Shown: positions 4,658 through 47,720, counted from the stretch's first letter. The stretch: DNA of 59,621 nt from an uncultured Candidatus Saccharibacteria bacterium (GCA_964357525.1 CAYHLH010000001.1:77719-137339); one strand, 5' to 3'. The notes: a model not told the origin generated them from the letters alone. Numbers and translations: made by a program.

Positions 4658-4676
4658 AACTATTTAAAATAATACC

Positions 4677-4701
4677 CTGACATTCTCAAGTTTGTAAGGG
4701 T
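4677..4701 (-). repeat. 25-nt box, copy D (between the arsR-like stop and the xth start)
   Basis: ctgacattctcaagtttgtaagggt is repeated at 5011-5035 with one mismatch. It is embedded in hairpin aataccct...agggtatt (4671-4704). Confidence 0.8.
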
Positions 4702-4708
4702 ATTCTTT

Positions 4709-4993: not shown

Positions 4994-5010
4994 ATTCACA
5001 TTATAACATA

Positions 5011-5035
5011 CTGACATTCTCAAGTTTATAAGGGT
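5011..5035 (-). repeat. 25-nt box, copy U (upstream of the arsR-like start)
   Basis: ctgacattctcaagtttataagggt, in the same orientation as copy D. Confidence 0.8.
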
Positions 5036-5153
5036 GTATAACAAATAAAAACAAAGTAAGGCGGCTGTGGATAAATCTTGACCGAATGCGCGCAAAATGG
5101 TACAAATGAAAGGTTATTTAAAAATAAATTTATAAACATGAAGGAGAATAGAT

Positions 5154-5588
5154 ATGGAAAACGCTTCCCGTTCCACCGCCATTATGCCTCAGGAAGAGGC
5201 CAAGATTTTCAGGATATTCAGAAAAAATCACATTGATTTCGCGCTCTCAAACGGATGCATAAAATTTCTCACGGCTTTTTTGCCCGGGGAGAAATCCAAA
5301 AAAACGACCGACAATCCTGTTTTCATAGGGGACGAAAAGAAAAAAGTCTTACAAACAAGAATCGAGGCTCAAGAGAACGGGCTTGAGACGTTTCACTGGA
5401 TACAAGGGATAGAATTCGCGGGAAAAAACGCTCCGATGGTCAGGGATGTGACGATCTATTGCCCCATCAATGAAAAGACGGGATTGGTGATATGGTTCGA
5501 CACGAACAAGGAAATAGTGAGGGCAATGTTGCTATCGGAACCTACCAATTTTCACCCAAAGATGAAAATCCCCTGTTGTCGAAAGTAG
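5154..5588 (+). CDS. hypothetical protein
   Basis: 144-aa ORF preceded by AAGGAG 7 nt before the ATG and followed by a terminator. No known domain recognised. Confidence 0.5.
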   Translation: MENASRSTAIMPQEEAKIFRIFRKNHIDFALSNGCIKFLTAFLPGEKSKKTTDNPVFIGDEKKKVLQTRIEAQENGLETFHWIQGIEFAGKNAPMVRDVTIYCPINEKTGLVIWFDTNKEIVRAMLLSEPTNFHPKMKIPCCRK

Positions 5589-5614
5589 CGGCAAAAAACA
5601 CCGCGAATGATTTT

Positions 5615-5647
5615 GAAGCGTTGTATTTACAACGCTTCTTTTTTTTT
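5615..5647 (+). terminator. intrinsic terminator
   Basis: gaagcgttgta-ttt-acaacgcttc followed by a T9 run. Confidence 0.8.
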
Positions 5648-5650
5648 CTA

Positions 5651-5730
5651 TCATCTAGCGTAGCGAGGAAATACAAAAAACCGCTTTTGTATTTACGAGC
5701 GAGCGAAGATGACAAGGGCGAAGCCCGCCA
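5651..5730 (+). repeat. F2 hairpin element, tandem copy 1
   Basis: Outer stem TCATCT/AGATGA, internal loops AGCGTAGCGAGG and ACGAGCGAGCG, inner stem AAATACAAAA/TTTTGTATTT, then GGGCGAAGCCC. Confidence 0.8.
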
Positions 5731-5811
5731 TCATCTAGCGTAGCGAGGAAACGGAAAGATTTTACATTTACGTTTACGAGCGAGCGAAGATGACAAGGGC
5801 GAAGCCCGCCA
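5731..5811 (+). repeat. F2 hairpin element, tandem copy 2
   Basis: Flanks identical to copy 1, with a different inner segment. Confidence 0.8.
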
Positions 5812-25602: not shown

Positions 25603-26838
25603 TTAGAATTTGGAAATACACTCTTCGATGGTTATGAGTTCCACTTTTTCTTCGGAACGTTTTTTGAGCTCCACTTTGTTTTCTTTCATTGTGCGCTCGC
25701 TTGCAATGATCCTCCACGGGATACCGATGAAGTCGGATTCGAAGAGCTTCTCGCCGGGGCCGGCGTCTCTCTCGTCATAGAGCGTTTCCACGCCATTTTT
25801 AGTGAGGTCACTGTACACCGTCTCCGCGAATTTTTGAAGCCCCTTTTCGGATTTTCCAATGGAGAGGAGGTGCACCGCGAAGGGAGCTATTTCCTCGGGC
25901 CAGACTATCCCTTTTTCATCGTGGTGAATCTCAACGGCAGCGCCGATGAGGCGTTCAATGCCGATGCCGTAAGAAGCCATGATTACAGGATTTGCAACAC
26001 CCTTCTTGTCCTTGAACGAGAGCCCCGCGGCCTCGGAAAACCTTGTCCCTAGCTTGAATATATTGCCTACCTCTATTGCTCTGGCCTCTTCGAACGGCCC
26101 CCCGCATGACTGGCATTTTTCTCCCTTTTTAGCAATTTCCGAGTTCCGCGCCATATGGCACTTCCGGCACATAACAATGGAGTCCTCCCCTATGGGCGAT
26201 TCCACCATGAATTCATGCGAATATTCCTTTGAAAAATCGCCACCAGATGCCTCCGTGAGGAGCGCCTTGAGCCCGCAGCGGGAAAATATCCGGAAATAGG
26301 CCTCTTTTGCCGACTCATAGAATTCCACGAGCGATTTCTCGTCCGCATGAAAGCTGTAAAGGTCTTTCATGGTGAACTCCCTGCCGCGCAAGAGCCCCGA
26401 CTTCGCCCTCGGCTCGTCGCGGAACTTGGTCTGTATCTGATAGAGCGCCTTCGGCAGGTCGGCGTATGATTCTATCTTCCCCACCGCGAGCGCCGCGACG
26501 ACCTCCTCGTGCGTGGTGCCGAGCCCAACCTCCTTCCCCGCGTGGTCCTTGAACTGGTACATGATATTTTTCAGCGTCTCCCACCTGCCGGAGGCGTCCC
26601 ACACGGACTTCGGATGGAGCGCGGGAAGGAGCATCTCCTGTCCGCCGATGGAATTCATCTCCTCGCGGATGACGTTCATCACCTTCTCGCGGACGCGGAG
26701 CCCCAACGGAAGGAACGAATACACGCCCGCCATGAGCTTCTCTACATACCCTCCGCGTATCAAAAGGCGGGCGTTTTGGGCCGCCTCGTCCTTCGGAAAA
26801 TCCTTTTGAACCTTCAAAAACAGTTCGGATTGGCGCAT
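25603..26838 (-). CDS. proS: prolyl-tRNA synthetase (short, no large editing insertion)
   Basis: Start at MRQSELF. Class II motifs (FRDEPRAKSGLLRGREF, GIGIERL). Confidence 0.9.
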   Translation of the reverse strand: MRQSELFLKVQKDFPKDEAAQNARLLIRGGYVEKLMAGVYSFLPLGLRVREKVMNVIREEMNSIGGQEMLLPALHPKSVWDASGRWETLKNIMYQFKDHAGKEVGLGTTHEEVVAALAVGKIESYADLPKALYQIQTKFRDEPRAKSGLLRGREFTMKDLYSFHADEKSLVEFYESAKEAYFRIFSRCGLKALLTEASGGDFSKEYSHEFMVESPIGEDSIVMCRKCHMARNSEIAKKGEKCQSCGGPFEEARAIEVGNIFKLGTRFSEAAGLSFKDKKGVANPVIMASYGIGIERLIGAAVEIHHDEKGIVWPEEIAPFAVHLLSIGKSEKGLQKFAETVYSDLTKNGVETLYDERDAGPGEKLFESDFIGIPWRIIASERTMKENKVELKKRSEEKVELITIEECISKF

Positions 26839-26954
26839 ATTAATACGCTTCAATCCTAACAAAATAAGCCCCCGGGGGCAAATTATTCGATATAATAAAA
26901 ATCTCCTTGTCAAAAGGCAAGGAGAAAAGAATTTAAGGATACAAAATTTAAATT

Positions 26955-27542
26955 TCAAAATGTTACCGCGCGGGAAAATATTGTGTCTTCATCTTTGCCC
27001 CAACCATATGTATTATACTTTTGCGTTCCTACATACACTTCATGTTTATGTATAACATAACGTACATATACAGCAATAATTTTTCTGTTTTTTAACCTTA
27101 GATAAAAAACATTTACCCCACCGCTGTTGTTAAAAATGTTGACTCCACCATTTATATAATCTTCCAGTAAGCATTTCGAAATTCCTAAAATTTCTAAAAT
27201 AGAAAAAGGTTCGGGTTCGCCAAGATCACAACAAATCTCAGAATCATACAAATTAGTCTTTTCAATCGATGTAAATCCATCAAGTTTTACACCCGAAAAT
27301 TCAATGGCATTTGTTGGAGCATTCTTCAAGATACATCCAATAAATTCTTCAGTAAAATTCACTTTTAGATTGCCAGAACCGACGCTGAGAAAACCCTCCA
27401 CATCAAACATTTTGGCAGGAATTTCTACAGTTTTTGACAAGATGCGTTTCAAAAGTTTGAGCTTTGGGGTTTTTATTTTTTCTACACGAGCTATCCAAAA
27501 GTTTTTTAATTCATTTGGGCCCCGATTACCTTTTTGGGGCAA
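26955..27542 (-). CDS. hypothetical protein (AT-rich island)
   Basis: 195-aa ORF with a non-ATG first codon, so the start is uncertain. No domain recognised. Confidence 0.4.
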   Translation of the reverse strand: MPQKGNRGPNELKNFWIARVEKIKTPKLKLLKRILSKTVEIPAKMFDVEGFLSVGSGNLKVNFTEEFIGCILKNAPTNAIEFSGVKLDGFTSIEKTNLYDSEICCDLGEPEPFSILEILGISKCLLEDYINGGVNIFNNSGGVNVFYLRLKNRKIIAVYVRYVIHKHEVYVGTQKYNTYGWGKDEDTIFSRAVTF

Positions 27543-27637
27543 TCAATGTTTTAAAATAAGCTTTAATTTACAGTATAATTTTACTGTCTTTTAATTATAT
27601 CATAAAACAAAAATAAATGCAAATATCTCGACAAAAC

Positions 27638-27667
27638 CCATCCGCTCCAATCGATTGGAGCGGATGG
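27638..27667 (+). promoter_or_regulatory. 30-nt palindrome abutting the -10 box of the YerC-like gene
   Basis: ccatccgctccaatcgattggagcggatgg, followed by TATAAT (27668-27673), then 6 nt, then the ATG. Confidence 0.7.
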
Positions 27668-27679
27668 TATAATTAAAGC

Positions 27680-28045
27680 ATGGTCAGAATCAATCGTACT
27701 CAATTCCCCGCTGCACTGCGCCAAAAAACATGGAAAGCGCTCTGGATAATGGGTAAGGATTCAGAGTCCCCCGAAGCGATGATGCGCAAACTCAAAAAAG
27801 TAATCGCTCCGTCCGAAATTGAGATGTTTGAGAAACGTCTCGCTATTATGATCCTTCTCAAGGAAGGGTTTAGCTACAGAGCCATCGGACGTGCCATAGA
27901 TGTGAGTCCCTCTACAATCAGTTTCATAAAACATAACTTCACGCGGAAACCTGCCACCCGCTCCCGATATGCTCCGTCATCAAAGAAAAAATATCCTAAA
28001 TTTCATCATTCATCTAAAGGAGTGGGCACATTGCTCTGGAAGTGA
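27680..28045 (+). CDS. TrpR-related YerC/YecD-family HTH protein, paralog 1
   Basis: 121 aa. SEIEMFEKRLAIMILLKEGFSYRAIGRAIDVSPSTISFIKH resembles the YerC/TrpR HTH layout. Confidence 0.65.
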   Translation: MVRINRTQFPAALRQKTWKALWIMGKDSESPEAMMRKLKKVIAPSEIEMFEKRLAIMILLKEGFSYRAIGRAIDVSPSTISFIKHNFTRKPATRSRYAPSSKKKYPKFHHSSKGVGTLLWK

Positions 28046-28051
28046 ACAAAA

Positions 28052-28081
28052 ATGCCCGCTCCAATCGATTGGAGCGGGCAT
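28052..28081. terminator. same palindrome core reused as a bidirectional terminator
   Basis: aaaaatgcccgctccaatcgattggagcgggcatttttt. It shares CGCTCCAATCGATTGGAGCG with 27638-27667. Confidence 0.7.
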
Positions 28082-28188
28082 TTTTTAATTGACCTTCCTA
28101 AACAGACCAAAGTTAATGAAGCTCGCCTGCCCAGTTATAATTTTGCAAAAAACGCAGCGCCAGTTCTTACCGCTTACAGCTTTAAACT

Positions 28189-29265
28189 TTAAAAAATCCT
28201 CCGCACGTCCCCGATTGTCACGAGAACCATGAGTACGAGAAGCAGGAAAAGCCCCGTGAGATTCACGGCAATCTGGAGCTTTCGCGACACCGGACTCCCC
28301 TTCACGCGCTCGATGAGCGCCATCACGATGCGCCCGCCGTCCAGGGCCGGAAACGGGAGGAGATTGAGAACCGCGAGGTTCACGGAGATGAGCGCCAAGA
28401 GATCGAGGAAGTACACGAAGCCGAGCGCCGACGTTTCCTTCGCGACGATGACGATGCCGACGGGACCCGCGATGTTCTCCGTCGCGGTGCCGGGCGAGGT
28501 GAAGAACTTCCACGCCATGTCAAAGAACCCTGCGACCACGAGCTTGCTCACTCCCCAGGTCTTCGCGGCGCCGACGCCGATGCTGTCGAAAAATCCCGAC
28601 GGCGCCGCTCCCACCTCACTGATATAGACCCCCAGGGAACCCTGCCCTTCCGCCGGATTTTCCCTCGCGAGGACGGAGGTTTCCCGCGTCTCATTCCCCC
28701 GCCGGAGCGTGATCGCCACTTCCTTCCCCCTCGAGGACCCGGCCCCCGCAATGAAGGCCCCCGCGTCCACGGGGTCCTTGAGGACGGTCTCGCCGAACCT
28801 CGCCTCGAGGACGATGTCGCCGACCTCGAGGCCCGCTATCTCGGCCGGAGAACCCTCCTGCACCCCGCTCACAACAAGGTGCTCAGGCACGCCCACGAAC
28901 GCGACGCCGCAGAACACGAGGAAACCGAAGAGGAAATTCATGAATACTCCCGCCGCGAGCACGGCGATTTTCTTGCCCACGGGCTGGTTCACAAAGCTGC
29001 TTCCGGGATTCTTTTCCTCCTCGCGGTGCTCCTCATCCGTTTCCTTTTCCTCGCCGTCCTCCCCGAGGATATGCACGAATCCGCCGAACGGCAGGGCGTT
29101 CACGCTGTACACCGTGCCTTTCCTCCTCTTTCCGAAAAGGCGTGGCGGAAATCCGATGCCGAACTCGAGGACCCTAAGCCCGAACGCCTTTGCAACAGAA
29201 AAATGCCCCAGTTCGTGGATGAAGATGAGGAACGAAAGCGCGAGGATGACGAGTACGGTGGTCAT
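28189..29265 (-). CDS. rseP: site-2 protease RseP (M50 zinc metalloprotease with PDZ)
   Basis: HELGHF and NLLPFPALDGG motifs. Confidence 0.88.
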   Translation of the reverse strand: MTTVLVILALSFLIFIHELGHFSVAKAFGLRVLEFGIGFPPRLFGKRRKGTVYSVNALPFGGFVHILGEDGEEKETDEEHREEEKNPGSSFVNQPVGKKIAVLAAGVFMNFLFGFLVFCGVAFVGVPEHLVVSGVQEGSPAEIAGLEVGDIVLEARFGETVLKDPVDAGAFIAGAGSSRGKEVAITLRRGNETRETSVLARENPAEGQGSLGVYISEVGAAPSGFFDSIGVGAAKTWGVSKLVVAGFFDMAWKFFTSPGTATENIAGPVGIVIVAKETSALGFVYFLDLLALISVNLAVLNLLPFPALDGGRIVMALIERVKGSPVSRKLQIAVNLTGLFLLLVLMVLVTIGDVRRIF

Positions 29266-29464
29266 GCCGATTTTATTCGTGAACGCAGTGAACGACTATA
29301 AAATCGAGCACCCCGCACATATTTTGCGGAAATACCATTATTTTTAGAAATGAATTTTCCGAACATTAAAATCTTTTTTCTCATATAAAATTGGGTTAAT
29401 AAAATATGTGCGGGGTAGAGTTTGATATTCAAAAATCTTTCGCTTCTCAGCTCGGATTTTTGAA
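29266..29464 (-). repeat. E1 intercistronic element, copy a (frr | rseP)
   Basis: Hairpin B 29268-29276/29298-29306; IR arms 29310-29325/29401-29416 (perfect 16 bp); hairpin A ~29421-29468. Ends in GGCATG. Confidence 0.8.
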
Positions 29465-30007
29465 TCAAGACTTGATCTCTTTGATCTTCGCCTCGAGCGC
29501 CTTCTCGATTCCATCGTTCGTCTTGTCCACGGCCCTCTGGACACGTTCCTTTTCCGAAAATTTGTCGTCTTCCGTGAGCGCAACGTCGCCCTGCGTCTTC
29601 CGGTTCGCCTCGTCTCTCGCGTGGCGGAGCCGGATGCGGTAGTCTTCCGCGGTCTTCTTCACATGCTTGATGAACTCCGCTCTCCGTTCCGCCGAAAGCT
29701 CGGGAAGGTGGATGCGGACCACATTCCCCTGGACCTGCGGGGAAAGCTTCAAGGTCGAGGTCTCTACTGCCTTTGCGACCGCGGAAACCGCGCCCTTGTC
29801 CCACACCTGGATGTTGATCTCCCTTGGGAGCGCGATGCTCACGGAACTCATGTGCTTCAGGGGCGTCTGCTGCCCGTAATAGTCCACCACAATGCCTTCC
29901 ACGAGTGCCGCCGACGGCCGGTTGGTCCTGACGCCCGAAAGCTCGCGCTTGAGGTCCGCAAGGATGCGGTCTGCCTCCGATTCAAAAGAAGATTCCATGG
30001 CGTTCAT
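29465..30007 (-). CDS. frr: ribosome recycling factor
   Basis: 180 aa. LSGVRTNRPSAALVEGIVVDYYG pattern. Confidence 0.93.
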   Translation of the reverse strand: MNAMESSFESEADRILADLKRELSGVRTNRPSAALVEGIVVDYYGQQTPLKHMSSVSIALPREINIQVWDKGAVSAVAKAVETSTLKLSPQVQGNVVRIHLPELSAERRAEFIKHVKKTAEDYRIRLRHARDEANRKTQGDVALTEDDKFSEKERVQRAVDKTNDGIEKALEAKIKEIKS

Positions 30008-32325: not shown

Positions 32326-32512
32326 CGAATTCGGAATCTCAAATTCCCTAGTGCGAGGCACCAAGTATCTTTATGTGTTTGGAAATTTCAAGGCGACGCT
32401 AAGCCAAAGCGTACCCGGGCTTATTCTGCGCGGAGAAATTTCGGAATTCGATCGCCTGAAACCGTGGCCGCAGGCAAACCAATCTACTATCCGTTTGTTA
32501 TTATAACAAAAA

Positions 32513-32540
32513 AATCCGTGCGAAATACTTCGCACGGATT
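32513..32540 (-). terminator. intrinsic terminator of 32596..33204
   Basis: aatccgtgcgaa-gtat-ttcgcacggatt followed by a T-run (minus sense). Confidence 0.75.
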
Positions 32541-32595
32541 ATTAAAGTCAAAGTGACCAAGGGTCTAAGAAAATAAAATTCCAAGTCAAAAATCG

Positions 32596-33204
32596 TTACT
32601 TGCGCACAGCCAGAAAGCGATCCTCGTCACCCCAGACACCGTCGAACCAATACAGATTGAGCTTGCGTCTGCTGTCACCATAGTCCAGAACCGCAACGAA
32701 CCGACCGCCATCCGGGTCCTGCCACACCGAACCGATGGCAATAACTGGAAACTCTTTTTGAAGTTCCGGTTTTGCTTCCCCTAATGCGAGCAGTTCGTGT
32801 ATGTTTCCGGGTCGGTATCCTTCCTTTTCCATTTCTTTGATTGCATCATCTGACGAGATGCTACGGTTGAAGTGGAATAACTTATACTCCGCGTCGTAAT
32901 CGGCGGGAACGGTCTCCGGGAAATTCTTATCGTTGATGTCGCTATTTGTCCAATCATATTTCCCCTTCTTGATTCTTTCGTTGAGGGAAAGACCTGCGAC
33001 GATATGAAGAATGTTTTCTTTCACTGTTTTTACCGTGTTAACGATGAGTTCGGCAAACTTATCTACAAGCTTTGAATTCGATTTCAAAGCGTTATAAATA
33101 TCTTCTTCGTTTCCACCGCGTTTTTGGATGGCTTTTACGAGGCAAGTGGTAAATTGAACGAAGAAAATTCCTCCGCTGACCATTGATGACTTTTTGAATG
33201 TCAT
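32596..33204 (-). CDS. hypothetical protein with C-terminal WFD..RFLAVR domain
   Basis: 202 aa. AAGGAG 8 nt upstream of the ATG. C-terminus GSVWQDPDGGRFVAVLDYGDSRRKLNLYWFDGVWGDEDRFLAVRK. Confidence 0.55.
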   Translation of the reverse strand: MTFKKSSMVSGGIFFVQFTTCLVKAIQKRGGNEEDIYNALKSNSKLVDKFAELIVNTVKTVKENILHIVAGLSLNERIKKGKYDWTNSDINDKNFPETVPADYDAEYKLFHFNRSISSDDAIKEMEKEGYRPGNIHELLALGEAKPELQKEFPVIAIGSVWQDPDGGRFVAVLDYGDSRRKLNLYWFDGVWGDEDRFLAVRK

Positions 33205-33330
33205 TGTAATTACTCCTTATTTTGCCCTTCGCTCGTTCTATTTGAGTTTCGGACGTTTTTAATTATCAGCAATGACGCTGACTTCTTTAAGTATAGCATA
33301 TTATAATAGAAAAGTCAACCTCTCGCTCTT

Positions 33331-33360
33331 TTGTCAAGGGGGAGGGATAAGACCTATAAT
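33331..33360 (+). promoter_or_regulatory. promoter of the GIY-YIG gene (leaderless layout)
   Basis: TTGTCA-18 nt-TATAAT, then 6 nt, then the ATG at 33367. Confidence 0.7.
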
Positions 33361-33366
33361 TGAGCC

Positions 33367-33678
33367 ATGCCCAGTAATACAACTTCCAGAGTGCACTTCC
33401 ACTATATTTATGTACTGGAAAGCATGAAAGATGGAAATCGCTACATTGGCTATACCGCTCACTTGAAAGAAAGGATGGAAGCGCACGAAAAAGGCAAGTC
33501 ATTTTCCACTGCACCCCGCAGGCCTTTTTGTCTTGTCTATTTTGAAGGATGCACGAACGAAAAAGACGCCAGACGCAGGGAGCATTATTTAAAGACAACC
33601 CAAGGTCGCAGGTTTTTAGGATTACGGCTTCAGGAACGCCAGCGTGCGAAGAAAGCGTCTGGCGTCACTGGAAGTTGA
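33367..33678 (+). CDS. GIY-YIG nuclease-family protein (UPF0213-like)
   Basis: 103 aa. YIYVLES..GNRYIGYT...R...H motif order of the GIY-YIG domain. Confidence 0.8.
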   Translation: MPSNTTSRVHFHYIYVLESMKDGNRYIGYTAHLKERMEAHEKGKSFSTAPRRPFCLVYFEGCTNEKDARRREHYLKTTQGRRFLGLRLQERQRAKKASGVTGS

Positions 33679-33688
33679 TATACTGGGG

Positions 33689-35044
33689 ATGCACATAACC
33701 CTCCGGCGTCTCCTTTTCTGGCTTTTCTTCCTCGCCTTCTTCGCGGTAGGGACGCTTTTAATCGTGAAAACACAAGGATTCGTCATTGATTGGGAAAATC
33801 TCGCGCTCGTGAAGACCGGCGGGATATTCATCAAGGCATTGCCTTCCGACAGCAGACTTTTTCTCGATGGAGAGCCGTACAAAAAGCCCGCTTCGCTCTG
33901 GAACAGCGGCATCCTCGTCAAAGACCTCCTCCCGAAAACATATACGGTTCGGGTGGAGCGCGACGGACGCTACCCGTGGGAGAAAACTCTTGTCGTCTCG
34001 CCGGGGCTCGTCGCTTCCGCGAGCGCCATCCGCCTCTTCGAGAAGGAACCCGAGATGACGCCCATCTCGTCGCGCATCCTCGAGGATTTCTGGCTCGTGA
34101 AGGGGGGGATAGTGGAAAAATCGGGAGGTAAACTGCACTTCGGCGGCGCCTTGATTCGCGGAAGCGGCGTGCTTGAGGCGCTCCCGGACCGGAGCGAGCT
34201 CATTACGACCGACAAAGACCTGAATTTCTTCTTCGTCTCGCTCTCCGACCCGGAAACGGCGACGAATCTCCGCACGCTTTTCGCTTCCCTCGCGCAAACC
34301 CGCGGGTTTTTGAAAAGGAACGTCCGCGTGGAGAGCGTTGCGCTCCACCCGTTTTCGCCCTCCGCGGTCGTCGTGCGGTACGACACGGGTGTTTTCCTTA
34401 TGGACGTGAAAAAGCTCGAACTACAGAAAATAGCGGAAAATGCCGGAAAAGGGGCCCTTTTCACGGCCTCAAACGAGGCATATTGGGTGACCTCCTCGAG
34501 CATATCCGCCTACAATCTCCTTTTGGGCGTCCTTTCCGATATCCCCCTTTCTCCACTGGCCGACCCGCGGTCCTTCAGGACCGACCGGGGGGGGTCGATT
34601 TTCTTCTACAAAAGCGGCTCCGGAACGCTCTACGCTTTTGGCAGGACCAACGCCTCCTCGACGGAGATCGCGGCGCGCGTCCTCGATTTCTCGCTCTCCG
34701 ATGACGAAAAGCTGCTCTTTATCGTCCAGAACGACGGTCACGCGCTTTTTCATTATCTCGCGGAGGGCACGGGAGACGTGAACGTTCCCAAGGGGGTTTC
34801 CCGTTCGTTCCCCCTTCCGAAAAGATTCTCCGCTCCATCGGCCGACGTCGTGTGGGCGTCCGGCATTCCATTTCACCTCTTCTTCGTGAAGGAAGGAACG
34901 CTCGTCGGTGCGGAGACCGACATTCGCGCTCCGGTTGCCGCATACCCGCTCGCGGAGGGCGTGGTGAAAGCCGCATACCGCGACCGGAAATTCGTCATTC
35001 TCACTGACGACGGGACGCTTACGGAGCTTTCCTTGGAGTTCTAA
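33689..35044 (+). CDS. membrane-anchored PEGA-domain protein
   Basis: Start at MHITLRRLLFWLFFLAFFAV. PEGA-like segment ALPSDSRLFLDGEPY...YTVRVERDGRYPWEK. Confidence 0.6.
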   Translation: MHITLRRLLFWLFFLAFFAVGTLLIVKTQGFVIDWENLALVKTGGIFIKALPSDSRLFLDGEPYKKPASLWNSGILVKDLLPKTYTVRVERDGRYPWEKTLVVSPGLVASASAIRLFEKEPEMTPISSRILEDFWLVKGGIVEKSGGKLHFGGALIRGSGVLEALPDRSELITTDKDLNFFFVSLSDPETATNLRTLFASLAQTRGFLKRNVRVESVALHPFSPSAVVVRYDTGVFLMDVKKLELQKIAENAGKGALFTASNEAYWVTSSSISAYNLLLGVLSDIPLSPLADPRSFRTDRGGSIFFYKSGSGTLYAFGRTNASSTEIAARVLDFSLSDDEKLLFIVQNDGHALFHYLAEGTGDVNVPKGVSRSFPLPKRFSAPSADVVWASGIPFHLFFVKEGTLVGAETDIRAPVAAYPLAEGVVKAAYRDRKFVILTDDGTLTELSLEF

Positions 35045-37075: not shown

Positions 37076-37426
37076 TTATACAAATTCAATGACCGCCATC
37101 TGCGCGGCATCGTGCACGCGGCGCTTCGCGAGCTTCGTTATGCGGGTATATCCGCCTTTTCGCGAGGCGTATTTTGGCGCGATGTCGTGGTAGAGGGTGT
37201 AAACCGCGTTTTTGGGGAGTTTTGAGAGGAGGAATCTCAATGACGCGAGGTTCTGCTTCTTCGCGTGCGTGACGAGGCGCTCGACGACCGGGCGGACCTC
37301 CTTTGCGCGCGCCTCGGTCGTCGTCATTTTCCTGCGGACAATGAGGTTAGCCGCGAGTCCTTTCACGAACGCCCGGCGCTGCCCGCGCTTTCTCCCGAAT
37401 TTTCTCCCTTCCTTCCCGTGCCGCAT
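37076..37426 (-). CDS. rplQ: 50S ribosomal protein L17
   Basis: 116 aa. MRHGKEGRKFGRKRGQRRA. Confidence 0.92.
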   Translation of the reverse strand: MRHGKEGRKFGRKRGQRRAFVKGLAANLIVRRKMTTTEARAKEVRPVVERLVTHAKKQNLASLRFLLSKLPKNAVYTLYHDIAPKYASRKGGYTRITKLAKRRVHDAAQMAVIEFV

Positions 37427-37651
37427 GCCAACGATGTCTAAATTTTCGAGCTCATCCGTGGCGAAGAAAATTTAGCCACAATCATGAGCACCCGCCCAAG
37501 TTTTTGGGTATTTGCCGACATTTTTACTGTTGAATTTTTTATCTTGTTATCCATTGTATTTATCATATTACCTGAAAATTTGGGCGGGTAAGGTTTGATG
37601 ATGGAAAAATGTTCGCTCATTATCATTAGCTCCATTTTTCCAATCAAGCCC
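37427..37651 (-). repeat. E1 intercistronic element, copy b (rpoA | rplQ)
   Basis: Hairpin B 37438-37447/37466-37475; IR arms 37490-37505/37575-37589; hairpin A 37595-37647, closed by TAAGG (rpoA stop)/CCTTA. Ends in TTGGCATG. Confidence 0.8.
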
Positions 37652-38413
37652 TTACTTTTTCGTTTTCTTCGCTTTCTTCTCGGTCTTCGCTTCTTCCTTG
37701 CCTTTCATCTCGATGTGCGTCACCTCGAAGTCCCCGATGCGGTCGAAATGGTCGTGTAGGATGCTGATGGCCTTGTGAAGCGCTTCCGAGGGGCTGATGC
37801 TGCCGTCGGTCTTTATATCGAGCGAGAGGCGGTTATAGTCCGTGCGCTGCCCCACGCGCATGTTCTCTACGGACACCGCGACGTTCTCAACCGGCGAGAA
37901 TATCGCGTCGAGGACGATGGTGCCGACGAGGAGCCTCTCGAGCCGGCGCGATTCGGCGGGAACGTACCCGAGGCCCTTTTCCACCACGAGCTCCATGTCG
38001 AGCTCCGCGGCCTTCTTCGTGAGCGTGCAGAGATGGAGGTCCTTGTTCACGACCTGCACGAACGGGGTCGATTGTATGGCGGCGGCGGCGACCTCTCCCT
38101 CGCCTTTTGCCTTGAGGGTCAGAGTCTGCGGTTCGTCGGCGAGGAAATGGAAGCGAACCTTCTTGAGGTTCAGCGTGAACTGTATGATGTCCTCCATCAT
38201 TCCGGGGAGCGCCGAAAATTCGTGGTTCACCCCCTTGATCTTTATCTGGGTGACGGCGGCGCCGGGGATCGACGAAAGGAGCACGCGCCGGATTGCGTGG
38301 CCGACCGTCGTCCCGTACCCCGTGTGGAGCCCCTCGATGTGAAAAACGCCGAGATTGTCCTTCTCGGAAATTTTCTTTATTTCGACCGAATCGCTCAAAC
38401 GCACATACTGCAT
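37652..38413 (-). CDS. rpoA: DNA-directed RNA polymerase alpha subunit, N-terminal domain only
   Basis: 253 aa. The alpha-NTD pattern runs through ISILHDHFDRI, then a short K/E tail and a stop. No CTD is present. Confidence 0.9.
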   Translation of the reverse strand: MQYVRLSDSVEIKKISEKDNLGVFHIEGLHTGYGTTVGHAIRRVLLSSIPGAAVTQIKIKGVNHEFSALPGMMEDIIQFTLNLKKVRFHFLADEPQTLTLKAKGEGEVAAAAIQSTPFVQVVNKDLHLCTLTKKAAELDMELVVEKGLGYVPAESRRLERLLVGTIVLDAIFSPVENVAVSVENMRVGQRTDYNRLSLDIKTDGSISPSEALHKAISILHDHFDRIGDFEVTHIEMKGKEEAKTEKKAKKTKK

Positions 38414-38441
38414 ACGATTAGTGTAAAATACGACGACTTGT

Positions 38442-39047
38442 TTACCGCGAATAGAACTCGCCGACCAGATTGATGTCGAACGAGAACTGCGTGCCTTCGG
38501 GGTCGAATTCCTTGACGCACCGCCCCTTGAACTCCTCTTTGGACGTGAGCTCGAGCCAGTCGGGCGGGTTGTATTTCTTGAGGCGGTCCCCCAGTTCCTC
38601 GAACGCCTTCAGGCGGCGCGATTCATCGCGGATCGCAATGACATCGTTGACCTTAACACGGAACGAGGGAATTGTCACTTTCCGACCGTTCACGACGATG
38701 TGGCCGTGACTCACAAGCTGGCGCGCCACGCGGACGGAACCCGCGAACCCGAGAAGCGAGACCACCCTGTCGAGCCGGTGCTCGAGCGCCTGGATGATCT
38801 TCTTCTTGTCCTTGTTCCGCAAAAAGAGATTTCCCATCTGCCGGTTCGTGAGCCCGTACGTGAGCTGTATCTTCTGCTTCTCGTTGAGCTGTTTTCCGTA
38901 ATCCGATACGTTGTGGCGCTTCTGGCCGTGCGGGCCGGGGCGGTACGGCCTCCGGACGATCGCGGCCTTCGGGGACGCGGAACGCTCGGGCTTCAGAAAC
39001 AGCCTTGCCCCGAGTGCGCGCTCCCTTTTTTCCTTTACCGGTCTCAT
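38442..39047 (-). CDS. rpsD: 30S ribosomal protein S4
   Basis: Start at MRPVKEKRERALG. S4 domain VSHGHIVVNGRKVTIPS. Confidence 0.92.
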   Translation of the reverse strand: MRPVKEKRERALGARLFLKPERSASPKAAIVRRPYRPGPHGQKRHNVSDYGKQLNEKQKIQLTYGLTNRQMGNLFLRNKDKKKIIQALEHRLDRVVSLLGFAGSVRVARQLVSHGHIVVNGRKVTIPSFRVKVNDVIAIRDESRRLKAFEELGDRLKKYNPPDWLELTSKEEFKGRCVKEFDPEGTQFSFDINLVGEFYSR

Positions 39048-39251
39048 GCCAATGTTATTTGCGAACAACGTGAGCAATGATAACATTGCGCACCCGCCCA
39101 AGTTTTTGGGATTCTGCCGACTTCTTTATCATTGTTATTTTCATGATGGTTTCAATTGTATTTACCCATATAATTGCAAAAATTTGGGCGGGTAAGGTTT
39201 TGTCGCCCCGTGAGATGGCGACGGCCGCCTATCTCACTGGGGACAAAGCCC
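39048..39251 (-). repeat. E1 intercistronic element, copy c (rpsK | rpsD)
   Basis: Hairpin B 39050-39058/39080-39088; IR arms 39092-39107/39178-39193; hairpin A 39198-39247 plus TAAGG/CCTTA. Ends in TTGGCATG. Confidence 0.8.
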
Positions 39252-39704
39252 TTATACTCTCCTCACTTTCGGGGGCCTCGGCCCGTTGTGGGGGATCGGC
39301 GTCACATCCTTCAGGGAAAGGATGTTGAATTTTCCGCCAGCGAAGGTCCTTATAGTGGAATCCCTCCCCTTGCCGACGCCGCACACGACGATGTCCACGG
39401 AAAACGGGCCCGTTTTCTCTATCTTCGCGGCAATGGCCTCCGCGACCTTGGAGGCCGCGAAGGGGGTGGCTTTCTTGGGGCCCGAAAAGCCGATCGAGCC
39501 CGCCGACATCCAGGTCAAGACGTTTCCCTTCTCGTCAGTGACGGTGATGATGGTGTTGTTGTAGCTGGCGTTCACATAGATGCGCCCGCGCTCCACTTTG
39601 TGCTTGGAGCTCGGGGTTGTCTTCTTAAGGGCCGCTTCCTCCACCTTTGCGGATTCCTTCAGGGCCTCCTCTTTCGTCTGTTCGGCTACTTTCTTCTTTC
39701 CCAT
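39252..39704 (-). CDS. rpsK: 30S ribosomal protein S11 (N-terminally extended)
   Basis: IYVNASYNNTIITVTDEKGNVL...PHNGPRPPKVRRV. Confidence 0.92.
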   Translation of the reverse strand: MGKKKVAEQTKEEALKESAKVEEAALKKTTPSSKHKVERGRIYVNASYNNTIITVTDEKGNVLTWMSAGSIGFSGPKKATPFAASKVAEAIAAKIEKTGPFSVDIVVCGVGKGRDSTIRTFAGGKFNILSLKDVTPIPHNGPRPPKVRRV

Positions 39705-39705
39705 A

Positions 39706-40089
39706 TTATTTCAACTCCACTTTCCGCTTCCCGCTTCCGGCGGTTTTCCGGACGTTTCCGCGTATGGTGCGCGAATTCGACTTGGTGCGCTGTCCGCGCG
39801 ACGGGAGGCGGCGCGCGTGGCGGGTGCCGCGATACGCCTTGATATCCTTCAATCTCCCCACGTTCTGCCTCACCGTCTGACGGAGCTCCCCTTCTATCTT
39901 ATGGTGCTTCTCGATGAAGCTCTGGATCTTCGAGACCTCTTCCGTCGTGAGGTCCTTCGCTTTCTTCTCGGGCGCGATCTTCGTCTCCGCGAGTATCTTC
40001 GCCGCCAAAAAAGGGCCGATGCCGTACAGGTACCTGAGAGAAATCGAGATCTTCTTGTTGTCCGGAATGTGGACGCCGCTCAAACGCAT
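39706..40089 (-). CDS. rpsM: 30S ribosomal protein S13
   Basis: 127 aa. SLRYLYGIG ... YRGTRHARRLPSRGQRTKSN. Confidence 0.92.
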   Translation of the reverse strand: MRLSGVHIPDNKKISISLRYLYGIGPFLAAKILAETKIAPEKKAKDLTTEEVSKIQSFIEKHHKIEGELRQTVRQNVGRLKDIKAYRGTRHARRLPSRGQRTKSNSRTIRGNVRKTAGSGKRKVELK

Positions 40090-40274
40090 GTGCCAATCTT
40101 ATTTGCGAGCAGTGCGAGCAATCATAAGATTGAGCACCCGCCCAAGTTTTCGGGCTCGCGTCGACTTCCTCACTGCTGATTGTTTCATTATAGTATTCAT
40201 TGTTTCTGTTAGTGTTGTTTGAAAATTTGGGCGGGTAAGGTTTTGTACCTCCAGCTACGCCGGAGACAAAGCCC
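40090..40274 (-). repeat. E1 intercistronic element, copy d (rpmJ | rpsM)
   Basis: Hairpin B 40094-40102/40124-40132; IR arms 40136-40150/40222-40236; hairpin A 40236-40277, which includes the rpmJ stop. Ends in TTGGCACATG. Confidence 0.8.
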
Positions 40275-40391
40275 TTACCCCTGCCGCTGCTTGTGCTTCG
40301 GGTTCTTCTTGCAGATGACGTAGACCACGCCGCCTCTGCGGACTATCTTGCAATGTTGGCATACTTTTTTCACCGATGCTTTTACTTTCAT
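40275..40391 (-). CDS. rpmJ: 50S ribosomal protein L36 (not in the ORF track)
   Basis: Hand translation: [38 protein letters not shown]. Confidence 0.9.
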
Positions 40392-40665: not shown

Positions 40666-41412
40666 TCAAATTTTCCCGCTTAAAACGCTCCGAATGAGTT
40701 TTTCCGCGCCGCGCGGGCTCGAAACCTGAACGGTCTTTATTCCGACGCTTTTGACCGGGTAATCGTTGCCGCCCGGGAAAAGGGCGTCTCCGACGAAGAC
40801 GGCATCCTTCTTCCACGCGCGGAAATGCGCGAGCGCGCGGCGGACGCCGAACGCCTTCGTGATGCCCTTCTTCGTGACGTCGATGGACGAGAGTCCGGCT
40901 ATTCCTATTTCGAAACCGGGGAGTCTTTTTTTGAGGAGCGCTCTCATCCGTTTCCGCTTTTTCTGATGCGGGTCCCATTTCTTCTTGATGGCAAGCGGGG
41001 TGTGATTGCCGAGGCCCGAGAAGGTTATCTGCGCCCCGCGGTCGTCGAGGATTCGCCCGTATATTTTCTTCGGCTTGTGCCCCACTTCCTTCATTACCTC
41101 GTTGAACGCCTTTGTGATCCTCTTCCGCTCCGTGGCGGAAAGGGAATGGCGGTATGCGCGCTTCCACATCTTGCGGAACATCCAAAGTTCGCTTCCGTTC
41201 ATCGGAAGTATGAAGAGGTTCTTGAAATTCGCCCGCTTTGGAATGCGGGATATGAGCTCCCTCTTGAACTGAGGGAAATCCGCCCCGGAGATGACTCCGA
41301 CGCGCGCAATGCCGAGTAGCCCGGCAAGTAACTTGCCCATAGAAGGCGCGAGGGGCCGCTTGCTCTCAGTCAGCGTTCCATCCATGTCGAAAATAAAAAG
41401 CTTCGGCTTCAT
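40666..41412 (-). CDS. HAD-IIB family hydrolase (phosphomannomutase/sugar-phosphatase-like)
   Basis: FIFDMDGTLT motif I and GDALFPGGNDYP motif IV. Confidence 0.75.
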   Translation of the reverse strand: MKPKLFIFDMDGTLTESKRPLAPSMGKLLAGLLGIARVGVISGADFPQFKRELISRIPKRANFKNLFILPMNGSELWMFRKMWKRAYRHSLSATERKRITKAFNEVMKEVGHKPKKIYGRILDDRGAQITFSGLGNHTPLAIKKKWDPHQKKRKRMRALLKKRLPGFEIGIAGLSSIDVTKKGITKAFGVRRALAHFRAWKKDAVFVGDALFPGGNDYPVKSVGIKTVQVSSPRGAEKLIRSVLSGKI

Positions 41413-41663
41413 TTATACTTCAACTTCAAAATAATGACTGAAACCTGCATAAAAAAGGTGATTCCACTCATTACTATTAGGGAAATACTGCCAATAAGAA
41501 CTCCGTAAGTTACCCATAGTATTTGCCCGCACAGATTGATTAAACCCCAAGAAATTGAGATGTCCTTTGTGGATTTTGTTTTCCACAATTTGATGACCTG
41601 AGGAAGAAGAGAAATGGAAACGAAAATACCGGCAATAAAACCAATTAATTCGAAATTTTCCAT
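41409..41663 (-). CDS. SemiSWEET / PQ-loop sugar transporter
   Basis: 84 aa, three TM helices, LPQVIKLWKTKSTKDIS motif. TATAAT lies 6 nt upstream of the ATG. Confidence 0.75.
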   Translation of the reverse strand: MENFELIGFIAGIFVSISLLPQVIKLWKTKSTKDISISWGLINLCGQILWVTYGVLIGSISLIVMSGITFFMQVSVIILKLKYK

Positions 41664-41676
41664 GACTCCATTATAC

Positions 41677-41705
41677 AGGAACCCCGCCTTTAGGGCGGGG
41701 TTCCT
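41677..41705 (-). terminator. terminator hairpin at the 3' end of rnpB
   Basis: AGGAACCCCGCC-CTAA-AGGCGGGGTTCCT. Confidence 0.7.
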
Positions 41706-42103
41706 GATTCGATTGGTACCTCATAAGCCGGATTCTGTTTATACGATAATCCATCTGGGCCCTCGATTACTCTCAGGCTCAAGCGGCACTTCCCTCGATT
41801 TCTCTCGGGACACGGCCTTGCACCCAGTAAGGATTTAGCCGTTTCACCCCTTCGGTTTCCCGAAGAGCTCACCCGGTGTGGGTGCCCTATCCTTTCGAAA
41901 TCGGGCGTCTCTGTTCGCACCTCTCGGGTTTCCCCGGACGGCTGTTAACCGCTACTTGTTTACCCAGCCCCAATTTTACTTACAAACTTTTTACTTGTTT
42001 TCAGGCTTGCGAGTAAAATTGGAGCTGGGGAGTGTCCGGACTTTCCTCTAAGCAAATAATAAATTATATGCCCAGCTATCGTGTGATGTACCGCTCTGAA
42101 TCA
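41705..42103 (-). ncRNA. rnpB: RNase P RNA, bacterial type A
   Basis: CR-I GAGGAAAGTCCGGAC (rc of 42034-42048), GGGGTGAAACGGC, CR-V ACAGAATCCGGCTTATG (rc of 41722-41738). P1 pairing TGATTC..GGTAC / GTACC..GAATCA sets the ends to within +/-5 nt. Confidence 0.9.
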
Positions 42104-42145
42104 TACCCTAAAATACAGAAAAAATCAACATTTCTATAAAAAGAT

Positions 42146-42169
42146 ACTGTCCCAATTAATTGCGACAGT
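42146..42169 (+). promoter_or_regulatory. palindrome abutting the -10 box of YerC-like paralog 2
   Basis: actgtcccaattaattgcgacagt, followed by g, then TATAAT (42171-42176), then 7 nt, then the ATG. Confidence 0.7.
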
Positions 42170-42183
42170 GTATAATTGTTTGT

Positions 42184-42549
42184 ATGACTAGAGTAAGCAA
42201 AACAAATCTAGTGCAAAAATTCAGAAAAGAAGCTTGGAAAAAGTTCTTTGACGATACGAATCAAGCTTCTTCTACGGATACACTCATTGAAAAACTCCGA
42301 ACTAGGCTGTCTCCTTCAGAAATATTAATGTTGGAAAAACGTCTTATAATTTCGCTCCTAACTGAAAAGGGAATGGGATGTAGGGAGATAGGCCGATTGA
42401 TTGATGTCAGCCCCAACACAGTAACTTTTGTAAAACATCATTTTGCGAGAAAAATCCTTTCTGTCCCTAAAAATCCCCGGACTCCAGCACAAAGAACCGC
42501 GAAAACTCACCGTTCTTCAAAAGGAATGGGAGCTGAACTATGGAAATAG
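42184..42549 (+). CDS. TrpR-related YerC/YecD-family HTH protein, paralog 2
   Basis: 121 aa from MTRVSK. SEILMLEKRLIISLLTEKGMGCREIGRLIDVSPNTVTFVKH. Same length and C-terminal ..SSKG.G..LWK as paralog 1. Confidence 0.65.
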   Translation: MTRVSKTNLVQKFRKEAWKKFFDDTNQASSTDTLIEKLRTRLSPSEILMLEKRLIISLLTEKGMGCREIGRLIDVSPNTVTFVKHHFARKILSVPKNPRTPAQRTAKTHRSSKGMGAELWK

Positions 42550-42563
42550 GGTAAGACACCAAA

Positions 42564-42595
42564 ACACACTGTCGCAATTAATTGCGACAGTGTGT
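42564..42595. terminator. same palindrome reused as a bidirectional terminator
   Basis: acacactgtcgcaattaattgcgacagtgtgt, flanked by A- and T-runs. Confidence 0.7.
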
Positions 42596-42626
42596 TTTTA
42601 TTATTTTCTTGAGCGTACGAGATAAA

Positions 42627-46822: not shown

Positions 46823-47540
46823 ATACCCCCGTCCAAAGCCACCAGCGGAGCTTCGCAACCTCGACGAGCGTCGTAATATACGCGCCCATCCCGACCTTGG
46901 AACGTTCGTCGTTCACCCACCGCACCGGGACCTCCTTTATGCGGAATCCGAAATGCCGCGCGAGCGCGAGCGCCTCCACGTCGAACCCCCAGCGCGCGGT
47001 CCTCATCCGGGGAAAGATCTTCTCCGTCGCTCTGGCGGAGAAGCATTTGAACCCGCATTGCGTGTCGCGTATCCCCGGAAGCGCGAGCGCCTGGATGATG
47101 AGATTGCCTATTTTTCCAGGAACCTTCCGGTACCACGGCTGCGGGGGGAGGAGCTCCGCCCCGGGCAGCGCGCGCGAGGCGATGACGACGTCGTACCCCT
47201 TCCCTAGAAACGGCCTGAATTTCTCGAACTCGCGCATCGTCGTCGAATTGTCCGCGTCCGTGAAGAGGCGCCATTCGCCTTTCGCTTCAAGAAGCCCTTG
47301 GCGCGTCACGTATCCCTTTCCGTGGTTTTCCTTGTTTTCTATGACGCAGAGGTTCCTCACGCGGTTTCCGAGCCCACGCGCGACGTCCGCCGTGCCGTCC
47401 TTCGCGCCGTCCACCACGACGACAATCTCATGGGAATATCCGGCGGAAGCGAGCACGGAATCCATATCGAGGAGCGTCGCAGTGATGCGTTGCGACTCGT
47501 TGTACGCCGGGATGACGATGGAGAGAAACGGGTTAGGCAT
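46803..47540 (-). CDS. GT2 polyprenyl-phosphate glycosyltransferase (GtrB/DPM1-like)
   Basis: Start at MPNPFLSIVIPAYNE. DGAKDGT and TDADNS (DxD) motifs. Confidence 0.85.
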   Translation of the reverse strand: MPNPFLSIVIPAYNESQRITATLLDMDSVLASAGYSHEIVVVVDGAKDGTADVARGLGNRVRNLCVIENKENHGKGYVTRQGLLEAKGEWRLFTDADNSTTMREFEKFRPFLGKGYDVVIASRALPGAELLPPQPWYRKVPGKIGNLIIQALALPGIRDTQCGFKCFSARATEKIFPRMRTARWGFDVEALALARHFGFRIKEVPVRWVNDERSKVGMGAYITTLVEVAKLRWWLWTGVYGKKER

Positions 47541-47720
47541 GCCAATCTTATTTGCGAGGTACACGAGCAATCATAAGATTGAGCACCCGCCCAAGTTTTT
47601 GGACCTTTGTTGCGGATTGTATCATTGCGTATGTCTGCATATGTCTAAAAATTTGGGCGGGTAAGGTTCGGTAATCAAAAATCTTTCGCCTCCGGCTCTG
47701 ATTTTTGAACCGAGCCCTTA
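47541..47720 (-). repeat. E1 intercistronic element, copy e (gtrA-like | GT2)
   Basis: Hairpin B 47543-47551/47573-47581; IR arms 47585-47600/47647-47662 (46-nt loop); hairpin A 47662-47720, which lies inside the last 15 codons of the upstream ORF. Ends in TTGGCATG. Confidence 0.8.

Follow-up and report, generated by a model that had tools for sequence, protein, structure and literature searches.

The window analysed here is a 59,621-nucleotide (nt) stretch of DNA from an uncultured Candidatus Saccharibacteria bacterium (GCA_964357525.1, CAYHLH010000001.1:77719-137339), which its ribosomal protein S4 homologues place among Jorgensenbacteria-like Patescibacteria. The minus strand carries rpmJ, rpsM, rpsK, rpsD, rpoA and rplQ at 37.0–40.4 kb, and three junctions of this operon are filled by copies of an intercistronic element, E1: copy d at rpmJ/rpsM (185 nt), copy c at rpsK/rpsD (204 nt) and copy b at rpoA/rplQ (225 nt). 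Two further copies lie at the junction of a GtrA-like gene with a glycosyltransferase gene (copy e) and at the junction of frr with an M50 protease gene (copy a). The 59.6 kb thus hold five nuclease-less copies of 183–231 nt each, every one spanning exactly from the upstream stop codon to the downstream ATG on the minus strand. The inserts form AT-rich islands in surroundings of ~58–60% G+C. An earlier note on this DNA had described all five inserts, including those at 29266-29464 and 47541-47720, and each was found in its place and on that strand.

Each window copy shows the same module order: hairpin A comes first, an AT-rich loop enclosed by a long inverted repeat (IR) second and hairpin B last. 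The TAAGG/CCTTA pairing closes helix A and holds the upstream stop codon, while GGCA(C)ATG comes after helix B; both helices were formed in minimum free energy folds, in agreement with the earlier description. The arms ACCCGCCCAAATTTT / AAAACTTGGGCGGGT are exact in copies b, c, d and e; copy a has a different pair, ACCCCGCACATATTTT / AAAATATGTGCGGGGT, with perfect complementarity. A scan of the window with the arm pattern, allowing up to two mismatches, returned nine matches, eight of them exact, against a chance expectation of 0.29. The loop is 70–71 nt long in copies b, c and d, for which 69–71 nt had been given before, 47 nt in copy e and 75 nt in copy a. Over the full length, the five-copy alignment has a mean column identity of 61%, and it contains the paired changes listed earlier for stems A and B as well as the distinct helix B of copy b, which is longer and of different sequence. 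Copies d and e have the arms and the hairpin B stem in common but not hairpin A, whereas copies a and e have a similar hairpin A and dissimilar arms. The parts of the five copies, including an open reading frame (ORF) that starts in the loop, are as follows (aa, amino acids).

40090-40274, minus strand: copy d, insert between rpmJ and rpsM
40236..40277, minus strand: copy d, hairpin A, with the rpmJ stop TAA at its 5' base
40222..40236, minus strand: copy d, left IR arm ACCCGCCCAAATTTT
40136..40150, minus strand: copy d, right IR arm AAAACTTGGGCGGGT
40087..40135, minus strand: copy d, GC, hairpin B, TTGGCAC and the rpsM ATG
40099..40200, minus strand: copy d, loop ORF of 33 aa, MNTIMKQSAVRKSTRARKLGRVLNLMIARTARK, stop 9 nt 5' of the rpsM ATG
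39048-39251, minus strand: copy c, insert between rpsK and rpsD
39193..39254, minus strand: copy c, hairpin A, including the rpsK stop TAA
39178..39193, minus strand: copy c, left IR arm
39092..39106, minus strand: copy c, right IR arm
39045..39091, minus strand: copy c, hairpin B, TTGGC and the rpsD ATG (39047); S4 homologues have 201 aa
39055..39144, minus strand: copy c, loop ORF of 29 aa, stop 7 nt 5' of the rpsD ATG
37427-37651, minus strand: copy b, insert between rpoA and rplQ
37589..37654, minus strand: copy b, hairpin A, including the rpoA stop TAA
37575..37589, minus strand: copy b, left IR arm
37490..37504, minus strand: copy b, right IR arm
37424..37489, minus strand: copy b, long-type hairpin B (two stems, mutually exclusive or pseudoknotted), TTGGC and the rplQ ATG
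37438..37566, minus strand: copy b, loop ORF of 42 aa, stop TAG 11 nt 5' of the rplQ ATG
47541-47720, minus strand: copy e, insert between the GtrA-like and glycosyltransferase genes
47662..47720, minus strand: copy e, hairpin A, including the upstream stop TAA
47647..47662, minus strand: copy e, left IR arm
47585..47599, minus strand: copy e, right IR arm (loop of 47 nt)
47538..47584, minus strand: copy e, hairpin B, TTGGC and ATG; outer stem and flanks as in copy d, with four apical-loop differences
47548..47640, minus strand: copy e, loop ORF of 30 aa, stop 7 nt 5' of the downstream ATG
29266-29464, minus strand: copy a, insert between frr and the M50 protease gene
29416..29467, minus strand: copy a, hairpin A; TGA within CTTGATT serves as the upstream stop
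29401..29416, minus strand: copy a, left IR arm ACCCCGCACATATTTT, variant
29310..29325, minus strand: copy a, right IR arm AAAATATGTGCGGGGT
29263..29309, minus strand: copy a, hairpin B, TCGGC and ATG
29262..29384, minus strand: copy a, loop ORF of 40 aa, its TGA overlapping the downstream ATG (ATGA)
29273-29338, minus strand: copy a, alternative ORF of 21 aa in the family frame

Further copies sought beyond the window proved to be numerous. A strict pattern, TAAGGGCTT-N22-52-AAACCTTACC-N72-102-GGTGC, searched in one-genome-per-species contigs, recovered 79 stretches, all in Patescibacteria-type metagenome-assembled genomes (MAGs) of Jorgensen-, Colwell-, Harrison-, Wolfe-, Sung-, Azam-, Taga-, Brennerbacteria and other lineages (Paceibacteria), and an nhmmer profile of the element gave 126 matches in the collected DNA, with up to six per 8-kb locus (loci are numbered L001 onwards). 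In at least 70 of 84 distinct copies the upstream gene ends, in frame, at the TAA within TAAGGGCTT, and several of the remaining copies use the TGA of GGGCTTGA instead; at the other end, (N)GGCATG provides the start of the downstream gene in most copies. The downstream genes are often ribosomal, with S4, L6, S19, L13, S8, L17, S11, L11, S18 and L29 at the top of the Pfam tally (82 genes). All copies studied sit between protein-coding genes, and none lies inside a 16S or 23S rRNA gene. Variants demonstrate that the modules of the element are separable: in L052 the loop between the arms is 5 nt long, L026 consists of hairpins A and B without the IR, one subfamily carries a G+C-rich hairpin inside the loop, and a nested, collapsed ACC-arm/arm-GGT module occupies the apex of hairpin A in L053 (2429-2587), L090 (3555-3727) and L012 (2870-2935).

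RNA folds contained all three helices, the long-range IR helix as well as hairpins A and B (z = -3.8 and -4.4), and the opposite strand folded no worse (z = -6.2). The IR helix measures 12–22 base pairs (bp) and has 66 different left arms among the 84 distinct copies, in which we counted 1250 Watson-Crick pairs, 26 A.C, 12 G.U and 18 other mismatches. Covariation, proposed earlier as a check on the helices, was observed in the IR: in a 14-bp helix of 67 distinct arm pairs held in fixed register, 95.4% of the cells were paired compared with 63.5% after shuffling, both sides changed at 11 of the 14 pairs, and the covariation score reached 0.70 against 0.15 in shuffled sets and at most 0.20 in slid registers. 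The three palindromes are maintained through paired changes.

Comparison of orthologous junctions revealed that E1 comes and goes. In L001-L006, L008 and L009, whose S4 is 72–86% identical, the gene order is the same and the junctions measure 2–42 nt where the window has inserts, so the short junctions expected in other bacteria do hold for close relatives. L007, a near-identical strain (S4 98% identical), has an empty rpmJ/rpsM junction, TAAttttgacATG, and a filled rpsM/rpsK junction where the window reads TAAtATG, while its rpsK/rpsD copy has a hairpin A and arms (ACCCCATTGGATA / TATCCAACGGGGT) unlike those of the window. L011 (S4 81%) and L012 (76%) fill other junctions, namely infA/rpmJ, rpmJ/rpsM, rpsM/rpsK, rpoA/rplQ and rplQ/rplM. 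Presence and absence at the same intergenic site is thus documented for L007, L008, L009, L011, L012, L001 and L004 against the window. Two "empty" junctions of L011, TAAcattgggATG and TAAcattcgcATG, match the final 7 nt of the element's 3' tail, the remnant expected if a copy is lost by deletion from the upstream TAA to the TAA close to the end of hairpin B on its 3' side; loss would accordingly leave a 7-nt footprint. Since occupancy differs at 98% S4 identity, gain and loss take place on the time scale of strain divergence, and with such rapid turnover these junctions do not have the element as a fixed regulatory feature, nor is it a regulatory RNA specific to one lineage. In L001 (9090-9135, 9970-10003 and 11420-11452) another short repeat, AAGTTTAAAGTYAAAAGTCATTTATG, was observed at operon junctions where the element is absent.

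The origin of the element is indicated by longer relatives (L187, L185, L186 and L172) in which its blocks or arms recur around an intact, stand-alone gene of ~90 aa for a GIY-YIG nuclease, located within the IR loop. Of these, L187 is from a Colwellbacteria MAG and has its cassette between rpmG and a methyltransferase gene: all 5' blocks (TAAGGGCTT, hairpin A, AAACCTTACC, arms CGCCTAAATTTTT / AAAAACTTAGGCG) and all 3' blocks (GGTGCTC, a long-type hairpin B, TTGGCATG) are present around an intact 88-aa GIY-YIG gene. In L185 and L186 the left arm is identical to the window arm ACCCGCCCAAATTTT, and in L172 it differs by one substitution and an extra A. These three loci share a hairpin with the upstream stop codon at its 5' base, the left arm and the nuclease ORF, followed by a homologous right arm AAAATTTAGGCGGGTG, a hairpin with the apical CTCGC...CTCG motif of the window hairpin B, and the downstream ATG. 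In L038 (infC/rpmI), a normal E1-type hairpin A is followed by arms that enclose ~270 nt holding a GIY-YIG pseudogene with one in-frame stop. Intact homologues of its protein were recovered at nusG/rplK and at the junction of a pilin-like gene with rpmG (92 aa, 88% identical) and at ssb/rpsR (95 aa, 75% identical); the nuclease gene begins ~54 nt past the upstream gene (~109 nt at ssb/rpsR) and ends 30–40 nt before the next. At ssb/rpsR in L179 (1091-1201), an extra collapsed IR (TCCGCCTAAGTTT...AAAATTTGGCGGGT) precedes the full-length cassette, indicating repeated insertion at one junction.

The cassette nuclease matches Pfam PF01541, and the solved structures nearest to it are of UPF0213 proteins, a group of unknown function; no NCBIfam family reached its cut-off in a search with this protein. 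An hmmsearch of the five window copies revealed no nuclease gene, the only one in the window being a separate gene at 33367. An IR control around GIY-YIG genes was too permissive (50 of 64 shuffles passed), and the arms were therefore taken from direct reading.

Because the conserved blocks are common to L187 and the left arm to L185 and L186, the window copies are very probably nuclease-less miniature derivatives of a GIY-YIG cassette. As read from the sequences, the 5' half of this cassette would consist of the upstream stop in the base of hairpin A, a left arm starting with ACC and a ~90-aa GIY-YIG gene, and the 3' half of a right arm ending in GGT, GC, hairpin B, TTGGC and the downstream ATG, while in the miniatures a 47–75 nt A-rich loop appears in the place of the nuclease gene. 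The earlier note had named a match of the arms to a known MITE/IS terminus among the outcomes that would undo its reading, and in spirit this is what the full-length relatives provide, the same blocks (L187) or left arm (L185, L186) carrying a GIY-YIG gene. The GIY-YIG nucleases could drive the spread, through homing-like repair of double-strand breaks or by cutting palindromes in a structure-directed way; the miniatures would be relics or elements mobilised in trans, and the copies may recombine with each other module by module. E1 is real and far from chance, and it is a decayed mobile cassette, unusual and precise in its relation to the signals of translation, rather than a new class of regulatory RNA.

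Besides their palindromes, the miniatures carry an ORF that had been overlooked. It runs in the sense direction from an ATG in the loop (often ATGAATAA) through the right arm, where GGTGC is read as G-V, to a stop (TAA, TAG or TGA) within the 3' strand of the hairpin B stem. The window ORFs have 33 (d), 29 (c), 42 (b) and 30 aa (e), stopping 9, 7, 11 and 7 nt before the downstream ATG, respectively; copy a has 40 aa, or 21 aa in the family frame. Of the 79 copies, 61 (77%) have an ATG-initiated ORF 25 or more codons long, compared with 19.6% of dinucleotide shuffles and 21.5% of antisense strands, and in almost all of the copies with an ORF the distance from stop to ATG is 4–17 nt, with modes at 7, 11, 5 and 10 nt. 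Where covariation affects the arms or hairpin B, the peptide is unconserved; the GTCGGC block, itself conserved, falls in two reading frames, with indels compensating and some copies keeping the ORF only by a frame switch. What seems to be kept is an open frame and the place where it stops, rather than a protein. An origin of the loop ORF as a remnant of the nuclease gene was considered and rejected: an HMM search detected no GIY-YIG similarity, and the match to the L185-type gene is limited to the frame that passes through the right arm.

These features suggest that the loop ORF keeps the downstream gene translationally coupled. In a crude test, Shine-Dalgarno-like motifs showed no excess upstream of window ORFs (21 of 112) over the interiors of genes (15 of 112). 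On the mRNA, the TAAGG/CCTTA pairs of hairpin A would stack directly on the ACC.../...GGT helix, and the stacked hairpin A, IR helix and hairpin B would bring the upstream stop and the downstream AUG together at one junction. Ribosomes translating the loop ORF would open hairpin B and then reinitiate at the downstream AUG, a relay that would count in an organism with few Shine-Dalgarno sites; the compact fold and relay ORF could in this way let essential operons tolerate the insert. The reinitiation platform listed among the candidate roles in the earlier note thereby gains some support from the ORF, while its mechanism stays putative. That fold and relay ORF indeed preserve translational coupling is a tentative proposal, possible but short of likely. 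If it is true, E1 would represent a portable intercistronic module of natural origin, suited to organisms that rely little on Shine-Dalgarno sites. Split ribosome-binding sites (T4 gene 38/25) and the caulimovirus ribosome shunt are known cases in which structure bridges translation signals. There, too, a helix loops out RNA so that distant signals become neighbours, with a short ORF ending at its foot; the two have no sequence relationship to E1, in which the signals are a stop and the next start, and the analogy is one of mechanism only.

Taken together, the five elements are probably nuclease-less miniatures of an intercistronic mobile cassette found widely among Paceibacteria, a judgement that combines the well-supported cassette origin with the more tentative coupling.

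Several observations weigh against this interpretation. No full-length cassette with matching arms is present in the window. Between filled and empty alleles no target-site duplication was found beyond a possible TAA...TAA, in the filled alleles the old TAA-ATG spacer is replaced, not simply interrupted, and the alleles compared point to no insertion mechanism. The nuclease is a catalytic domain of ~90 aa without a DNA-binding domain, unlike characterised homing endonucleases, and the label "homing endonuclease" is for this protein a putative one. In L187 the nuclease ORF ends ~70 nt 5' of the downstream ATG, so that stop-start proximity is not universal in the family. TAAGGGCTT, AAACCTTACC and GGTGCTC are kept across very divergent lineages, which, together with a loop ORF that stays open although no GIY-YIG similarity is detectable in it, points to a function beyond selfish persistence. 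Finally, no sense-strand excess of G.U pairs was detected in the IR or the hairpins, G.U counts in hairpins A and B being equal on both strands. With G.U no commoner on the sense strand, the helices may matter as DNA rather than as mRNA, and the palindromes may act, or at least arise, as DNA. The A.C mismatch of the window arms was dropped as a strand indicator, since it is inherited from the full-length cassette (stop-codon region).

Two further points of this kind come from the window's own nuclease gene:

33366..33691, plus strand: GIY-YIG cassette with a 103-aa gene (33367-33678) and IR arms at 33366-33389 / 33668-33691

The gene is intact and lies within a 24-nt IR, and the cassette abuts the next gene's ATG at 33689. 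The arms of this cassette are unlike those of the five miniature copies, and E1 occurs near a gene of this type at only 1 of 80 metagenomic loci. The window's nuclease gene is thus not obviously the partner of the five miniatures, and the possibility that its subfamily is embedded in E1 was rejected on the same count. In its metagenomic relatives (L092-L171) the layout is ATGCCCAGTA...TACTGGGT directly followed by ATG, precisely where many unrelated genes have their start codons, as though the cassette targeted or duplicated this codon. More distant relatives have arms such as ACCCCGTTAGATA, which are found in miniature elements too. These cassettes make IR-bracketed GIY-YIG genes at gene boundaries a broader theme, of which the hairpin A/B family is one branch. 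At ~1400-1760 in L155, two tandem GIY-YIG cassettes each follow a copy of the first 11 codons of the host gene (MKLLITGGAGF), which suggests insertion within the 5' end of the gene with duplication of its start region.

A bolder reading takes IR-bracketed GIY-YIG genes as the engine of an unrecognised class of prokaryotic mobile elements that read DNA structure instead of sequence and insert precisely at gene boundaries. Extruded palindromes would be recognised, the sites being stop-start junctions for E1 and start codons for the 33367-type cassettes, and the miniatures would have evolved their RNA fold and a relay ORF to preserve translational coupling, becoming near-neutral or even useful in essential operons. 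We regard this as speculative and somewhat doubtful; if true, it would provide a role for the widespread UPF0213/YhbQ-type GIY-YIG proteins.

Of the explanations that dispense with a mobile origin, a cis-regulatory RNA selected by the host (a processing site, an insulator, or an entry or reinitiation platform), kept for its tuning of downstream expression and with the nuclease as an occasional passenger in the loop, survives best, yet we consider it unlikely. The anatomy, the copy list and the compensatory changes of the possible new regulatory RNA put forward in the earlier note all stand, and the blocks and three-helix layout are indeed conserved over many Paceibacteria lineages, with exact stop-to-start placement, a loop ORF held open to end beside the downstream ATG, and scarce Shine-Dalgarno sites in this organism. 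The nested modules at hairpin A apices moreover show that IR cassettes can land inside elements already in place. The arms, however, are the inverted repeats of mobile cassettes, and the occupancy of orthologous junctions varies at 98% S4 identity and is absent in the 72–86% relatives, with unrelated variants in the same junction and footprints of loss. Nor is the sense-strand G.U excess of an RNA helix seen, and the loop-less (L052) and IR-less (L026) variants also speak against an RNA under host selection. No Rfam family corresponds to E1: as the earlier note had surmised, there was no match at gathering or E-value thresholds, with tRNA-Val as the only hit in the whole window at the gathering score and only chance-level matches at 37400-40300 with E up to 10.

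A small-protein cassette, in which a basic peptide of 21–42 aa (e.g., ...KLGRVLNLMIARTARK) is the product and the palindromes are its expression signals, is very improbable. It would account for the enrichment of the sense ORF (77% vs. ~20%), for a recurring C-terminal motif, GVLN..IAR.ARK, and for the annotation of one such ORF as a 33-aa gene in L011. The peptide nevertheless changes wholesale where the arms or hairpin B covary, the GTCGGC block is translated in two frames with the ORF rescued by frame switching in some copies, and the ORF is missing from 18 of the 79 copies and has no Pfam match; the conserved residues fall on conserved nucleotides of the arm and hairpin B.

Equally remote is the suggestion, also from the earlier note, of a terminator-plus-promoter cassette or an IR-bounded invertible promoter splitting operon transcription, for which an AT-rich loop with TAcAAT-like hexamers in some copies and two weak 9/12 promoter-like matches in copies b and c could be cited. 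The two weak sites are at non-equivalent positions, promoter-like sites in general are not enriched (4 vs. 2.6 in shuffles), the hexamers stand at unconserved positions and often within the loop ORF with no conserved -10 upstream of it, hairpin A lacks a T-run after it, full-length copies hold a gene rather than a promoter in the loop, and the loops keep one orientation relative to their flanks (38 plus vs. 8 minus loop matches; ORF bias of 77% sense vs. 22%).

As a decayed mobile cassette, E1 invites comparison with known mobile systems, and in its behaviour it is like a homing-endonuclease cassette of the free-standing kind that has left MITE-like offspring. Free-standing GIY-YIG homing endonuclease genes (seg genes) of T4-type phages spread by "intronless homing". 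Like them, the cassettes have a GIY-YIG gene between conserved genes, a site that is empty in close relatives and flanking hairpins, a pattern that fits the gain-degeneration-loss cycle of homing endonuclease genes; intergenic presence/absence polymorphism is observed as for a homing cassette, whereas nuclease coding is confined to the full-length relatives. The present elements differ in having a bare UPF0213/YhbQ-like catalytic domain of ~90 aa and a cellular host, a covarying IR of 12–22 bp with two further hairpins and stop-to-start placement, and many nuclease-less miniatures at different loci of one genome.

Bacterial miniature inverted-repeat transposable elements (MITEs) that are co-transcribed with genes include the Correia elements of Neisseria, enterobacterial ERIC and Rickettsia RPE. 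E1 resembles them in being short, palindromic, multi-copy, non-autonomous, strain-patchy, located in transcribed intergenic DNA and foldable as RNA, and in its probable derivation from a longer protein-coding relative. In contrast to MITEs, the IR of E1 is internal, the termini being hairpin A (TAAGG...CCTTA) and hairpin B...TTGGC; no target-site duplication was seen, and in the probable parent a GIY-YIG nuclease gene stands in place of one for a known transposase. The ends of E1 moreover coincide with stop and start codons, and its loop ORF is maintained.

The nearest published relatives concern rRNA genes of the candidate phyla radiation (CPR), which contain non-intron inserts with GIY-YIG proteins as well as ORF-less inserts of <200 bp at stem-loops (PMC11270868). 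Compared by description, these inserts share with E1 the host group, GIY-YIG genes outside group I/II introns, short ORF-less forms, a location at the tops or bases of stem-loops and a sparse, patchy incidence, but they lie inside rRNA genes and show neither the hairpin A/IR/hairpin B layout nor intercistronic copies (PMC11270868). We found no published description of E1 in the literature on Patescibacteria/Parcubacteria intergenic repeats, MITEs and GIY-YIG proteins, and a phage collection searched with copy d gave no match.

The cassette origin accounts for the 200-nt AT-rich gaps in the otherwise tight and conserved ribosomal-protein operons of Patescibacteria, and it ties a bare GIY-YIG domain to inverted repeats, exact stop/start placement and a large family of miniatures. 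Filled and empty junctions could in addition serve to mark near-identical strains in metagenomes. For annotation, the consequence is that loop ORFs are called as genes, as with the 33-aa gene in L011, and that downstream starts are mis-set. In the mechanical ORF list, for example, rpsD is given as 38442-39101 (minus strand, 219 aa), extended to a TTG within copy c, whereas the ATG at 39047 is the true start (201 aa, like the homologues); a similarly over-extended call exists in a public gene set (P0007, 215 aa).

Some minor observations were made on the surrounding DNA. Other mobile-element genes lie near the operons of relatives: one for a reverse transcriptase (RVT_1) in L001 (18008-19051), one for a 23S_rRNA_IVP protein in L002 (4646-5011) and one for a LAGLIDADG_3 protein in L186 (1-459). 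Other AT-rich islands of the window, at 800-5800, 26800-28200, 32400-33600 and 41400-42600, have 30–45% G+C compared with ~60% elsewhere and may hold other acquired DNA. The window RpoA (37652-38413, minus strand) has 253 aa and its counterparts in L001, L004, L009, L011 and L012 have 247–256 aa; the Pfam families on record for it are N-terminal only (PF01193 and PF01000), and this lineage thus seems to lack the C-terminal domain of alpha.

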